64,000 bases of DNA, from the NCBI RefSeq assembly GCF_041886205.1, contig NZ_CP169029.1. One strand, written 5' to 3'. The notes under the pieces were generated by a model, which saw nothing but the letters and a program-made list of their open reading frames with translations, was not told the DNA's origin and did not search any database. This document shows positions 5,060 to 61,509 of this stretch, in pieces. The DNA is from Escherichia coli (GTDB lineage: Bacteria > Pseudomonadota > Gammaproteobacteria > Enterobacterales > Enterobacteriaceae). The translations under genes were made by a program, and so were the position numbers. Every line of letters starts with the position of its first letter. Position 1 is the stretch's first letter.

Positions 5060-5180
5060 GGTTGCCGGATGTAAAATATGAAAAATATGTAGGCATGATA
5101 AGACGCGCCAGCGTCGCATCAGGCATCGAGAGCCAAATGCCAGATGCGGCGTGAACGCCTTATCTGGCCTACGAACCGAC
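5060..5180. repeat. REP/BIME cluster between ybaL and gsk
   Basis: Two or more REP units with the GCCTGATGCGACGC / GCCAGATGCGGCGTGAACGCCTTATCTGGCCTAC motif read directly. Confidence 0.6.
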
Positions 5181-12488: not shown

Positions 12489-14420
12489 TCAAATGGGGCG
12501 GATACTTTCTTCATCCAGCTCCGCATCGAAAAACCGACGCAGGGTCTGAATATTATTATCCGCAATAATGGACTCGCGCGCCTGCGCAAGTTTTTCTTCG
12601 TATATCGCCTGACGCCACTCCAGCGGCGTACGCACCGCGGGATTATCATCTTCAACGATAGTCAGTTCAACCGTTGAACCTTTTAACATGCTCAACGCTT
12701 CAGCCAGTTTTTGCTGTGCACCGCGGTTGTTCAAATGCCGCTGAGAGGAGCGCAAATGCAGACATACTGCGTTGTCGCTCTCCTCTTTCCAGGCATTTAA
12801 CGCCACCTGTTCGACCAGTTTTGGTAGCGAAAGTTGGCTCACCTGTGCCGCCCACGGGTCGCGCTCAATGGCTTCTGCCGCCAGCTTCGCCGCCAGTTCC
12901 GGCGTTTTTTCATGTTCCAGCGCTTTTTTCAGCGCCTTCGGCGTGGCGACCACTTCTTTTTGCTGCATCACTGGAGTGGTAGCCTTCCAGCGATACGCTT
13001 CTTTTTTGGCTGGCGCTTTTTCCAGCGCCGATGGCACCGGACGCGCCTGAACGCGATCGGTGACCGAAGCCAGTCTTTCCAGCGCAGCGTTATTCACCGG
13101 CCGCGCGCGGGTAGCGGCTGCCGGTTCACTCTTTTTTGCTTTGGTTGCTCCCTGCACGCGCTGCAACTGCTGGCGCGCCGCCAGCACCTGGCTGGTGGTT
13201 TCCGGGAGCGGTACAGTCGGTGCCTGCTGCGGCGCTGATTGCGGTTGCGGCGGCACCTGGGTTGGCGTCATTACTGCCGTTGGCGCGACGGGCGCAAAGG
13301 ACTGGCGTGGCACTTCTGGCTCAGGCAGAGGCATACGTGGATGGAACGCCAGCGCGCGCAGCAGCGTCATCTCAACGCCCATGCGGCGGTCCGGCGCATA
13401 CGGTAATTCTTTGCGACCAATCAACAGCGTCTGATAGTAAAGCTGAATATCCGTCGGCGGTATGGTGCGCGCCAGTTCACGCATCCGCAGCTCAATGGCG
13501 GCCATGTCGTTGCCAAGTGCAGCAGGCGAAAGTTGTACCATCGCAATACGATGCAACAGGCCGAGCATTTCCACCAGCAACGCTTCCCACTCGATACCAC
13601 GGGCAGCGGCTTCATTAATCAGCGCCATTACGCGCTCGCCGTTGGCCTCGACCATCGCTTCAACCAGCGACAGCGCCTGATCGTCATCAAGCGTACCCAG
13701 CATCGCACTGACTGCCTGGGTTGAAACCTGGCCGTCACCGCTGGCAATCGCCTGGTCGGTCAGACTTAAGGCATCTCGCAGGCTGCCTTCAGCGGCGCGC
13801 GCCAGCAATTGCAACGCCCGCGGCTCGTGAGCGATATGTTCTTCGTTGAGGATGTGCTCAAGTTGATGGCGAATTTGCTCGACATCCAGCGCCTTGAGAT
13901 GAAATTGCAAACAGCGCGACAAAATCGTCACCGGCAATTTCTGTGGATCGGTCGTCGCCAGCAGAAACTTAACGTGCTCCGGCGGCTCTTCAAGGGTTTT
14001 TAACAGTGCGTTAAAGCTGTGGCGCGACAGCATATGCACTTCGTCGATCAGATAAACTTTGAAACGACCACGCGCCGGAGCGTACTGGACGTTATCCAGC
14101 AGGTCGCGGGTATCTTCAACTTTGGTGCGCGAGGCGGCGTCGATTTCAATCAGATCGACAAAGCGCCCCTGCTCGATTTCACGACAGTTATCGCACACGC
14201 CGCACGGCGTCGCGGTAATGCCGGTTTCGCAGTTTAGCCCCTTCGCCAGCAGTCGGGCGATAGAGGTTTTTCCGACGCCACGGGTGCCGGAAAAAAGATA
14301 AGCATGATGAATACGCCCTAACGACAAGCCGTTCGCCAGTGCGGTCAGCACATGTTCCTGGCCGACGACGTCAGCAAAGGTTTGTGGGCGCCATTTTCGG
14401 GCTAAGACCTGATAACTCAT
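12489..14420 (-). CDS. dnaX: DNA polymerase III tau subunit (gamma by programmed frameshift)
   Basis: 643-aa ORF with AAA+ clamp-loader motifs; recognised as DnaX. Confidence 0.96.
   Translation of the reverse strand: MSYQVLARKWRPQTFADVVGQEHVLTALANGLSLGRIHHAYLFSGTRGVGKTSIARLLAKGLNCETGITATPCGVCDNCREIEQGRFVDLIEIDAASRTKVEDTRDLLDNVQYAPARGRFKVYLIDEVHMLSRHSFNALLKTLEEPPEHVKFLLATTDPQKLPVTILSRCLQFHLKALDVEQIRHQLEHILNEEHIAHEPRALQLLARAAEGSLRDALSLTDQAIASGDGQVSTQAVSAMLGTLDDDQALSLVEAMVEANGERVMALINEAAARGIEWEALLVEMLGLLHRIAMVQLSPAALGNDMAAIELRMRELARTIPPTDIQLYYQTLLIGRKELPYAPDRRMGVEMTLLRALAFHPRMPLPEPEVPRQSFAPVAPTAVMTPTQVPPQPQSAPQQAPTVPLPETTSQVLAARQQLQRVQGATKAKKSEPAAATRARPVNNAALERLASVTDRVQARPVPSALEKAPAKKEAYRWKATTPVMQQKEVVATPKALKKALEHEKTPELAAKLAAEAIERDPWAAQVSQLSLPKLVEQVALNAWKEESDNAVCLHLRSSQRHLNNRGAQQKLAEALSMLKGSTVELTIVEDDNPAVRTPLEWRQAIYEEKLAQARESIIADNNIQTLRRFFDAELDEESIRPI
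13131..13137 (-). promoter_or_regulatory. dnaX: dnaX programmed -1 ribosomal frameshift heptamer A AAA AAG (gives gamma subunit)
   Basis: Plus-strand cttttttgc at 13131-13139 is the reverse complement of GCAAAAAAG; encoded ...AKKSEP...; GC-rich stem-loop follows on the mRNA (13101-13128). Confidence 0.8.
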
Positions 14421-20103: not shown

Positions 20104-20751
20104 TTATTCGTTAGTGGCAGGATTACGAAGCGTGGGGCACAGGAGATACATCTCCAGTAAGATGGCAACGTAATCGCGGGCTTCTTTTTTAAGATCAAAA
20201 GATTGCGGGGCAAAGAGCCAGTTTTCCATCAGGCCGGAAATATAGCCGCGCATAATAATTGCTGCGCGACGCGTCATTAAATCCGCAGGCAACATTTTCG
20301 CTTCAATACAATGTTTTAACGTTTGTTCTATACGGTCATAACTTTCCAGACAGAGATTACGTTGTGCCTGTTGCACAACAGCCATTTCTCCGACAAATTC
20401 GCATTTGTGGAATATAATCTCCATCAATAATCGACGCCGTTCTTCTGTCACCGTGGATTCAAGAACATGAATTAATATCTCTCTTAATACTGAGAGTGGA
20501 TCGCCAGGGAATTTTGCCTGATACTCAAGCTCTAGTTCACCAATATTGGATTCTGACAGTTCCCAGATCTCACTGAACAAATCCGACTTGTCTTTAAAAT
20601 GCCAGTAGATTGCACCGCGCGTAACGCCAGCTGCTTTTGCAATCTCGCCCAGCGAGGTGGATGATACCCCCTGCTGTGAGAAAAGACGTAGAGCCACATC
20701 GAGGATGTGTTGGCGCGTTTCTTGCGCTTCTTGTTTGGTTTTTCGTGCCAT
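20104..20751 (-). CDS. acrR: TetR-family repressor of acrAB
   Basis: 215-aa ORF with N-terminal TetR HTH; divergent from acrA. Confidence 0.95.
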
Positions 20752-25423: not shown

Positions 25424-25432
25424 GCGCTAATA
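25424..25432. repeat. IS1 target-site duplication, left copy (GCGCTAATA)
   Basis: 9 bp immediately outside the IS1 end, identical to 26201-26209. Confidence 0.9.
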
Positions 25433-25447
25433 GGTAATGACTCCAAC

Positions 25448-25951
25448 TTATTGATAGTGTTTTATGTTCAGATAATGCCCGATGACTTTGTCATGCAGCT
25501 CCACCGATTTTGAGAACGACAGCGACTTCCGTCCCAGCCGTGCCAGGTGCTGTCTCAGATTCAGGTTATGCCGCTCAATTCGCTGCGTATATCGCTTGCT
25601 GATTACGTGCAGCTTTCCCTTCAGGCGGGATTCATACAGCGGCCAGCCATCCGTCATCCATATCACCACGTCAAAGGGTGACAGCAGGCTCATAAGACGC
25701 CCCAGCGTCGCCATAGTGCGTTCACCGAATACGTGCGCAACAACCGTCTTCCGGAGCCTGTCATACGCGTAAAACAGCCAGCGCTGGCGCGATTTAGCCC
25801 CGACATAGCCCCACTGTTCGTCCATTTCCGCGCAGACGATGACGTCACTGCCCGGCTGTATGCGCGAGGTTACCGACTGCGGCCTGAGTTTTTTAAATGG
25901 CGGAAAATCGTGTTGAGGCCAACGCCCATAATGCGGGCGGTTGCCCGGCAT
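25448..25951 (-). CDS. insB: IS1 InsB' reading frame (expressed as InsAB' transposase by -1 frameshift at A6C motif)
   Basis: 167-aa frame recognised as IS1 InsB; slippery A AAA AAC motif on the minus strand at about 25887-25896 (plus-strand gttttttaaa). Confidence 0.88.
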
Positions 25952-26145
25952 CCAACGCCATTCATGGCCATATCAATGATTTTCTGGTGCGTACCGGGTT
26001 GAGAAGCGGTGTAAGTGAACTGCAGTTGCCATGTTTTACGGCAGTGAGAGCAGAGATAGCGCTGATGTCCGGCGGTGCTTTTGCCGTTACGCACCACCCC
26101 GTCAGTAGCTGAACAGGAGGGACAGCTGATAGAAACAGAAGCCAC
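25870..26145 (-). CDS. insA: IS1 InsA (transposition inhibitor / N-terminal part of InsAB' transposase)
   Basis: 91-aa [23 protein letters not shown]... zinc-finger/HTH protein, recognised as IS1 InsA. Confidence 0.92.
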
Positions 26146-26200
26146 TGGAGCACCTCAAAAACACCATCATACACTAAATCAGTAAGTTGGCAGCATCACC

Positions 26201-26209
26201 GCGCTAATA
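26201..26209. repeat. IS1 target-site duplication, right copy (GCGCTAATA)
   Basis: 9 bp immediately outside the IS1 end, identical to 25424-25432. Confidence 0.9.
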
Positions 26210-26580
26210 GATTTAATAATCCATAATCATTTAGAGGCTATTCTTAATTATTTGCGGTAATTCTTTATTCATTCCTCGGTTATTACGTCATATTCAGAGC
26301 AATCCTGGTATTAGTGTCACCAATGTCATCTGGCGATAATCCTGAAATGTTATGAACTGTTCGAGCAAACTGCTTTTACCTACTGCGGGTTGGTGCTAGT
26401 ATGAAAAAGTGAGTCCTGTCCTGCTTCCTTCCTAATTGTAATTTTTCGTAATAATGCGATGAAAACCTGCAAAGAGTGGCTTATAGTTAAGCTAACAAAC
26501 GAGAGGGCAAGTCTAGGTCAGTAAGTTTTTTCCATCCCGAAAGGTGTCCGTTAGTTCAACCACTAAGAAGGGGACGCGTT

Positions 26581-30726: not shown

Positions 30727-30840
30727 GGGTGGGGGCCCTGCCAGCTACATCCCGGCACACGCGTCATCTGCCTTGGCTGCTTCCTTCCGGACCTGACCTG
30801 GTAAACAGAGTAGCGTTGCGGGAGAACCAACAGAGCCCCC
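30727..30840 (-). ncRNA. ffs: 4.5S RNA (signal recognition particle RNA)
   Basis: Plus strand 30727-30840 is the exact reverse complement of the 114-nt E. coli 4.5S RNA as I recall it (GGGGGCUCUGUUGGUUCUCCCGCAACGC...GGCAGGGCCCCCACCC). Confidence 0.95.
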
Positions 30841-48413: not shown

Positions 48414-48600
48414 AGAGCTCTCTCTTAGTTTAATTTCCGCCAGGTAATCAGATGACACGACTGTGCTTCACGCCATCTATTAACATGTACGTCAGTATAT
48501 GGGGATGTTTCCCCCACATTCAACGCCGAGAATAGAGGAAAAATTAAAGGGGAGATAAAATCCCCCCTTTTTGGTTAACTAATTGTATGGGAATGGTTAA

Positions 48601-60599: not shown

Positions 60600-60618
60600 A
60601 TACGGTTGATAGCCGTAT
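60600..60618. promoter_or_regulatory. inverted repeat IR-B (ATACGG-N7-CCGTAT), candidate operator overlapping the predicted transcription start
   Basis: Perfect 6-bp arms with 7-bp spacer just downstream of the -10; contains the spurious ATG of the ORF-track frame at 60606. Confidence 0.5.
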
Positions 60619-60671
60619 TATGTATGAGATCGACTCCCTACGATTTCATTCAGTTAATCAAAGAGGTCATA

Positions 60672-60983
60672 ATGCCTGGAAAAACAGCCACTCTACCCGA
60701 TGTCGATAAAACGCTGAAAAATGCGCGGGTCGAACTCAAAACTAGTCCCGACGCCAAAAACAAACTTCGTGAAGCTGCGCAAGCCGTTGGGGTAGATTTA
60801 AGCGCTTTTATTTTGAGCGCTGCTATGGAACGCGCCGAAAGTGTGCTTGATAACCAACGTCGCCGTGAGCTTTCGAATCAAAGCTGGGAACTGATGAACC
60901 AACTCATCGCTGAACCTGCTCAACCGACGCTCGCCCTCAAGGCGTTAATGAAAAGGAAAAACAGCGATGGTCGACAAGCATGA
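60672..60983 (+). CDS. ribbon-helix-helix (DUF1778-like) antitoxin of a GNAT-type toxin-antitoxin pair
   Basis: 103-aa from MPGKTATLPDVDK, RBS AAAGAGG 6-7 nt upstream; RHH-like N-terminus (RVELKTSPDAKNKLREAAQAVGVDLSAFILSAAMERAESVL) resembling TacA/AtaR/KacA-type antitoxins; overlaps the toxin gene by 17 nt. Confidence 0.8.
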   Translation: MPGKTATLPDVDKTLKNARVELKTSPDAKNKLREAAQAVGVDLSAFILSAAMERAESVLDNQRRRELSNQSWELMNQLIAEPAQPTLALKALMKRKNSDGRQA

Positions 60984-61509
60984 AGAGATTACTCTGCCCA
61001 TAGTCCTCTCCTGTAATTATCAGTCTGATATTACTTATCCTGGGCAAAAACAGTTTGATTGCGGTAACCCTGTTATCGATAAATTTGTACGCGCATCGCT
61101 AAAGAAAAGTGTGCGTAATAGCGACTGTGCGGCTAAAGCACTTATTGACAGACAAAGTGGTGAACTGATCGGCATCTGTACTTTTACGGCATATTCGCTG
61201 GAAAAACAACGCGTTTCTGGCGTCCTTCAGGGTTCACAACCTTCAGAAATTGGTGTTGTCAGATTAGTCATGTTGGGGGTAGCACGGAAGTATCAAAAGC
61301 GGGGCTTTGGTCAGGACCTACTATGTGATTTTTTTGAACATGTAAAAATAATTCACCAGGCATTACCAATTAAAGGGGTTTATCTTGATGCTGACCCTGC
61401 CGCCATTAATTTTTATGCTCGTCTCGGCTTTGTTCAGCTTTCAGCGACACCAAATGCTTTTGGTGCTGTACCTATGTTTTTGGCGATTCAGCATATTCTC
61501 GCGGCTTAG
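60967..61509 (+). CDS. GNAT-family acetyltransferase toxin (TacT/AtaT/ItaT/KacT-like, probable aminoacyl-tRNA acetyltransferase)
   Basis: 180-aa ORF with acetyl-CoA-binding motif A (VRLVMLGVARKYQKRGFG), motif B (AINFYARLGF) and N-terminal FDCGNPVIDKFV typical of GNAT toxins; immediately downstream of and overlapping an RHH antitoxin. Confidence 0.85.
   Translation: MVDKHEEITLPIVLSCNYQSDITYPGQKQFDCGNPVIDKFVRASLKKSVRNSDCAAKALIDRQSGELIGICTFTAYSLEKQRVSGVLQGSQPSEIGVVRLVMLGVARKYQKRGFGQDLLCDFFEHVKIIHQALPIKGVYLDADPAAINFYARLGFVQLSATPNAFGAVPMFLAIQHILAA

Follow-up and report, generated by a model that had tools for sequence, protein, structure and literature searches.

Frameshifting on the dnaX mRNA of Escherichia coli is described as 50% shifting into the −1 frame with termination one codon later, giving tau and gamma in a 1:1 ratio (PMC5009743), and efficiencies of 50 to 80% have also been reported (PMC8861025). 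E. coli has a sole tRNA-Lys (with a modified U34) that reads both AAA and AAG and that binds AAA more strongly than AAG, which favors re-pairing in the −1 frame (PMC5009743). Slippage of two tRNAs occurs mainly during hairpin-hindered translocation, and a slower, one-tRNA “hungry” route is taken only under aminoacyl-tRNA limitation (PMC6771820). According to a published description (PMC8861025), the hairpin has 11 bp, two bulges, and a UACCC loop, and the spacer is five nucleotides long. When the Shine-Dalgarno (SD)-like box is mutated, the hairpin is deleted, or the heptamer is made nonslippery, efficiency falls stepwise to about 50%, 20%, and 2%, and replacement of AGGGAG by AUAUCA is among the changes that reduce frameshifting (PMC5389563).

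Tau and a shorter gamma are also made from one dnaX gene, at approximately 1:1, in Thermus thermophilus and Caulobacter crescentus (PMC5009743). The locus reported here is like those in its two predicted products but unlike Thermus, which uses transcriptional slippage, and Caulobacter, which uses proteolysis, in that it has no long A-run and carries ribosomal signals. A further point of comparison is the insA-insB′ pair of the insertion sequence IS1, where an A-rich X_XXY_YYZ heptamer is likewise read by tRNA-Lys and a −1 shift into an overlapping frame gives a second product; however, the IS1 shift extends the protein into an InsAB′ fusion, whereas the dnaX shift truncates it. Frameshifting on IS1 is of low efficiency compared with the roughly 50% of dnaX.

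Here, we analyzed a frameshift site within a 64,000-nt stretch of E. coli DNA, referred to below as the window. We identify the region, almost certainly, as the canonical cassette for programmed −1 ribosomal frameshifting in E. coli dnaX, and no feature of the sequence speaks against this reading. It is like the K-12 element in its host gene, in the phase of the heptamer, in an SD-like box at 10 nt, in a 5-nt spacer, in an 11-bp hairpin with a UACCC loop, and in a Glu-stop ending. Nothing within the element is unlike K-12, and the surrounding gene differs by synonymous substitutions. Coordinates of the cassette, of its products, and of other features in the window are collected in Table 1.

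The open reading frame that hosts the site is dnaX, as judged from nucleotide identity and Pfam domains. Several complete E. coli genomes have an annotated dnaX with 100% nucleotide identity to its 643 codons, and a nucleotide search matched the open reading frame in 5424 of 5426 complete E. coli genomes. Compared with K-12 MG1655, there are 18 synonymous and 0 nonsynonymous differences, and the tau protein is identical; the 65-nt frameshifting element contains none of them, the closest being 137 nt away on its upstream side and 111 nt away on its downstream side. Translation across the shift predicts a gamma protein of 431 amino acids (47.5 kDa) with the C terminus ...ATKAKKE. In the K-12 RefSeq record, gamma is a two-piece joined coding sequence of 1295 bases, which corresponds to 14420..13126 of the window and is equal to it in length. 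The slip site, at codon 430, lies close to where Pfam tau domain IV begins and ahead of domain V, so gamma would retain the clamp-loader core (the ATPase and domain III), whereas domain V would be missing entirely and domain IV for the most part.

As a side observation on the genome collection (ecoli_genomes), 2 of the 5424 dnaX matches were on plasmid-typed records, and two to three complete genomes labeled “E. coli” had no match to dnaX or to the element. Both are probably assembly or labeling oddities.

Table 1. Positions of the dnaX frameshift cassette, its protein products, and other features of the 64,000-nt window.
Feature	Position	Strand	Details
dnaX zero-frame CDS (tau)	12489..14420	−	643 aa, 71.1 kDa; ORF list and nucleotide comparison
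Gamma coding range	13126..14420	−	zero frame to Lys430, −1 slip on 13137..13131, then GAG, UGA
Pfam DNA_pol3_delta2	dnaX residues 20-178		clamp-loader ATPase
Pfam DNAX_ATPase_lid	dnaX residues 182-230		
Pfam DNA_pol3_gamma3	dnaX residues 232-358		gamma/tau domain III
Pfam tau_4	dnaX residues 417-498		tau domain IV, DnaB-binding
Pfam tau_5	dnaX residues 500-640		tau domain V, alpha-binding
Rfam RF00382, “DnaX ribosomal frameshifting element”	13092..13156	−	65 nt; also PGAP “DnaX frameshifting element”
Internal SD-like stimulator AGGGAG	13148..13153	−	10 nt upstream of heptamer; within Rfam match
Slippery heptamer A_AAA_AAG	13131..13137	−	third base of Ala428, then Lys429, Lys430; phase calculation
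Spacer AGUGA	13126..13130	−	5 nt; includes −1-frame UGA stop, 13128..13126
Frameshift-stimulating hairpin	13096..13125	−	11 bp; MFE and centroid folds, Rfam consensus structure, covariation
Hairpin lower stem	13125-13120 with 13101-13096	−	six pairs, ACCGGC with GCCGGU
Hairpin mismatch	A(13119)/G(13102)	−	between lower and upper stems
Hairpin upper stem	13118-13114 with 13108-13106 and 13104-13103	−	five pairs; bulged C 13105
Hairpin loop UACCC	13113-13109	−	
naRNA4	5092-5169	−	Rfam above threshold; ybaL-gsk intergenic by PT62 collinearity
acrR	20104-20751	−	intact, 215 aa
IS1	about 25434..26200		between acrB and tomB; 23-nt imperfect terminal inverted repeats
Direct repeat GCGCTAATAG	25424-25433 and 26201-26210		flanking IS1
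IS1 insB ORF	25448-25951	−	
IS1 insA	25870-26145	−	
IS1 −1 frameshift heptamer A_AAA_AAC	25894..25888	−	in phase with insA
ffs/4.5S SRP RNA	30736-30832	−	Rfam above threshold
sraA sRNA	48485-48580	+	Rfam above threshold; between lon and clpX by PT62 collinearity
DUF1778 protein ORF	60606-60983	+	PT62 collinearity
GNAT N-acetyltransferase ORF	60967-61509	+	PT62 collinearity; overlaps DUF1778 ORF

A preliminary description of the window, made from its sequence, had placed the slippery heptamer at 13131-13137 on the minus strand, and this position is exact and in phase with dnaX. The zero frame reads GCA_AAA_AAG, in which codon 428 (GCA) ends with the first A of the heptamer, and this gives the X_XXY_YYZ phase; positions 13139..13131 reverse-complement to GCAAAAAAG in the dnaX frame, as that description required. 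The same reading had predicted a short ending of Glu and a stop after the shift, and translation of the −1 frame from 13137 indeed gives K-K-E-stop, in which a single Glu (GAG, 13131..13129) is added before the UGA. The surrounding minus-strand sequence, 13160..13085, is CGCGUGCAGGGAGCAACCAAAGCAAAAAAGAGUGAACCGGCAGCCGCUACCCGCGCGCGGCCGGUGAAUAACGCUG.

The heptamer sequence by itself is not enriched, with 18 occurrences of AAAAAAG in the window versus 14.5 ± 3.7 expected, and we dropped its frequency as a line of evidence. Two more copies of AAAAAAG lie within the tau-specific part of dnaX, at 13001-13007 and 12923-12929 on the minus strand. Both were rejected as slip sites: their phase is AAA_AAA_G, which is not tandem-slippery, and they are past the gamma stop.

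Around the heptamer are two stimulatory signals, of which the preliminary description had named the hairpin and omitted the upstream AGGGAG box (13153..13148). This box could, we presume, pair with the 3′ terminus of 16S rRNA (3′-UUCCUC-5′) at six positions, including one G-U pair. The hairpin begins 5 nt after the heptamer and has a free energy of −19.1 kcal/mol in both the minimum free energy (MFE) and the centroid folds; the consensus structure of Rfam RF00382 is identical to the folded hairpin. A G+C-rich stem-loop is thus present, as had been claimed, but the range first given for it, 13101-13128, is off by approximately 4 to 5 nt: it includes the UGA stop and the spacer and ends 5 nt short of the end of the 3′ arm, so that the true extent is 13125..13096. 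Compared with shuffled sequences, the isolated 32-nt hairpin has a z-score of −2.47, whereas a fold of the 76-nt context, which has a G+C-rich background, is indistinguishable from shuffles (z = −0.86). We therefore did not use the shuffle score of the 76-nt context as evidence; it is the isolated hairpin and the covariance model that discriminate. The hairpin of the window agrees with the published description of the dnaX hairpin (PMC8861025).

The run of A's at the slip site could also be read in another way, namely that gamma arises through slippage of RNA polymerase during transcription, for which Thermus thermophilus dnaX is a precedent (PMC5009743). However, the run consists of only six A's versus the 9 A or T described for bacteria (PMC5009743), and a conserved hairpin at 5 nt together with an SD-like box at 10 nt are features that stimulate the ribosome and not the polymerase. 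Furthermore, the shift has been reproduced by in vitro translation of defined dnaX mRNA (PMC5389563, PMC8861025). We consider transcriptional slippage extremely improbable at this site and retain programmed ribosomal frameshifting as the preferred explanation.

The window's element matches the Rfam family RF00382 over its full length (model positions 1-65 of 65), with a score of 96.8 bits against a gathering threshold of 35 and an E value of 1.9e-21; a scan of the whole window against Rfam recovered the match at dnaX again. Sequence and structure together are, by this match, far beyond chance, and both the above-threshold, full-length score and the location inside dnaX place the element in the family. 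The locus also has the two features of a canonical bacterial −1 programmed frameshift site, an in-phase X_XXY_YYZ heptamer and a stable structure within 5 to 9 nt downstream, and those of the E. coli type of dnaX, an SD-like box approximately 10 nt upstream and a near-immediate −1 stop that yields gamma without the C-terminal tau domains.

Within the species, 5423 of 5426 complete E. coli genomes contain the 65-nt element, and in 5372 of them it is ≥99% identical. Every E. coli record among the matches listed, as well as strain PT62, has the PGAP annotation “DnaX frameshifting element” over the same 65 nt. Alignment with K-12 dnaX had been proposed as a check on the site, and the element proved base-for-base identical to that of MG1655. 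With three known cis signals at canonical spacing and a full-length RF00382 match, the earlier characterization of an intact textbook recoding site holds. The frameshift site of the window is thus already known, routinely annotated, and the same as in the reference strain.

We next considered the hairpin across Enterobacterales. As a test of the hairpin that does not depend on Rfam, one genome per species was scanned with the pattern AGGGAG-N10-AAAAAAGAGTGA, with the stem left unconstrained, which gave at least 120 loci. Given that the SD-like box, heptamer, and AGUGA are constants of the pattern, this set informs on conservation of the stem and not on those three elements. Enterobacterial genera among the matches listed were Escherichia, Citrobacter, Enterobacter, Kluyvera, Kosakonia, Pluralibacter, Trabulsiella, Siccibacter, Buttiauxella, Pseudescherichia, Pantoea, Erwinia, Mixta, and Serratia, and no enterobacterial match among those listed was without a downstream CCGG stem. 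Non-enterobacterial matches to the pattern (Collinsella, Pirellulaceae, Thermoplasmata, and others) were set aside as unrelated, none having a downstream CCGG stem.

We aligned the 57 distinct Enterobacterales sequences among the matches listed, including that of the window. The closing pair of the hairpin is A-U in 38 and G-C in 17 of these 57 distinct sequences. Apart from this pair, the lower stem is invariant except for one G-C to A-U change (in Mixta, L023), and one G-C to A-U change occurs in the upper stem (in L054). Of the cells compared, 87% are paired, versus 29 to 53% when the 3′ partner is slid by 1 to 3 columns, and the covariation score was reached by none of 500 shuffles. Third-codon positions in the 3′ arm (columns 50, 53, and 56) are invariant, whereas an unpaired third position (column 35) varies. 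Judged from these alignments, the hairpin is maintained by compensatory changes across genera.

Above the lower stem, the structure varies in register, sequence, and length (the loop is 3, 5, or 8 nt long). Even so, the fold of each of the 57 versions has a hairpin, and its distance from the heptamer is the same. An apparent loss of upper-stem pairs 38-48 and 39-47, which are unpaired in 32 to 34 of the 57 sequences under the E. coli pairing, was rejected, because stem registers and loop lengths differ and each sequence folds on its own. Escherichia coli and Citrobacter have 5 bp in the upper stem, one bulged C, and a loop of 5 nt; Enterobacter, Buttiauxella, and Serratia have 4 bp and an 8-nt loop; and Pantoea and Erwinia have 4 to 5 bp and a 3- to 5-nt loop. 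In Candidatus Pantoea persica (L053:2972-3033, minus strand), a 12-nt in-frame deletion in dnaX relative to other Pantoea has removed the upper stem. The hairpin that remains has 7 bp and a loop of 3 nt, and the spacer is 4 nt long; this dnaX still has the SD-like box, the heptamer, and the −1 stop. From its sequence, this cassette is a natural short-stem variant.

Two other observations came from the same scan. Loci in Collinsella (L003, L004, L013, and at least about 35 more) share a highly conserved CTATGAAGGGAGAATCTGTGCCAAAAAAGAGTGAGAGC with no downstream hairpin, which, judged from its sequence, resembles a ribosome-binding site ahead of a GTG start and is unrelated to dnaX. In addition, a contig labeled “Chryseobacterium sp. 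18061” carries a Citrobacter-like dnaX cassette (L066:3024-3085, plus strand). A nearly identical cassette occurs in “Citrobacter sp. 18056” (L063), a product of the same study, and this suggests that the Chryseobacterium assembly is contaminated or mislabeled.

Conservation of the hairpin bears on the proposal that the short product comes mainly from proteolysis of tau, as it does in Caulobacter crescentus (PMC5009743), with the heptamer and hairpin being incidental. Against that precedent stand the −1 stop one codon past the heptamer, a hairpin kept through compensatory change in several genera, the full-length RF00382 match, and frameshifting of the exact same sequence measured at 50 to 80% (PMC5009743, PMC8861025); we regard proteolysis as a most improbable main source of gamma. 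That the motifs merely co-occur by chance in coding sequence, with no recoding role, would fit the unremarkable heptamer count and the 76-nt fold score, but we exclude it with near certainty because of the Rfam E value and the pattern of conservation and covariation (the phase of the heptamer is exact, the element is ≥99% identical in 5372 E. coli genomes versus 18 synonymous changes elsewhere in the gene, stem third-codon columns 50, 53, and 56 are invariant in 57 sequences, and the closing pair covaries).

Programmed ribosomal frameshifting at this cassette would proceed as follows. A ribosome would arrive at A_AAA_AAG with tRNA-Lys in both the P and A sites, where translocation would be slowed by the 11-bp hairpin, which begins 5 nt downstream and would sit at the mRNA entry channel, while AGGGAG, 10 nt upstream, paired with the 3′ end of 16S rRNA. 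In the stalled translocation, both tRNA-Lys molecules would re-pair one base back (AAA_AAG to AAA_AAA). Shifted ribosomes would then read GAG (Glu) and stop at UGA, producing the 431-amino-acid gamma, and unshifted ribosomes would produce the 643-amino-acid tau. Because its site is identical to the one studied experimentally in K-12, this strain is predicted to produce both tau and gamma; the slip itself, an efficiency of approximately 50%, and the kinetic mechanism are likewise expected from what has been published on the K-12 sequence. The trans-acting components, namely the single tRNA-Lys and the 16S anti-SD, are outside the window, and no tRNA genes are present in its 64,000 nt.

Elsewhere in the window, the −1 frame from the A_AAA_AAC heptamer of IS1 runs on into the insB ORF, so that, with the dnaX heptamer, the window has two programmed −1 frameshift sites. 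Insertion of IS1 at the acrB-tomB site is rare: among 5426 complete E. coli genomes, 11 have the insertion in one place, and it is absent between acrB and tomB in strain PT62. The dnaX of PT62 is 100% identical to that of the window, with identity of 99.0 to 99.6% elsewhere, and its acrR, unlike the intact copy of the window, is split by ISApl1 (IS30-like), so the window does not come from PT62 itself. The DUF1778 and GNAT ORFs form a pair between cyoE and yajR, followed by a gene for a TPR protein on the opposite strand. We take this pairing to resemble a type II toxin-antitoxin module.

For E. coli, the site makes dnaX one gene with two essential-replisome proteins, of which a six-frame or single-ORF view overlooks gamma; the relevance of the finding for this strain is correct annotation only. 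Beyond the window, in other genomes, the variants of the stem in different genera would provide a natural mutant series for studies relating hairpin geometry to frameshift efficiency. It is possible, if rather unlikely, that the at least three structural classes of upper stem and loop could set genus-specific tau:gamma ratios, as opposed to a universal 1:1.
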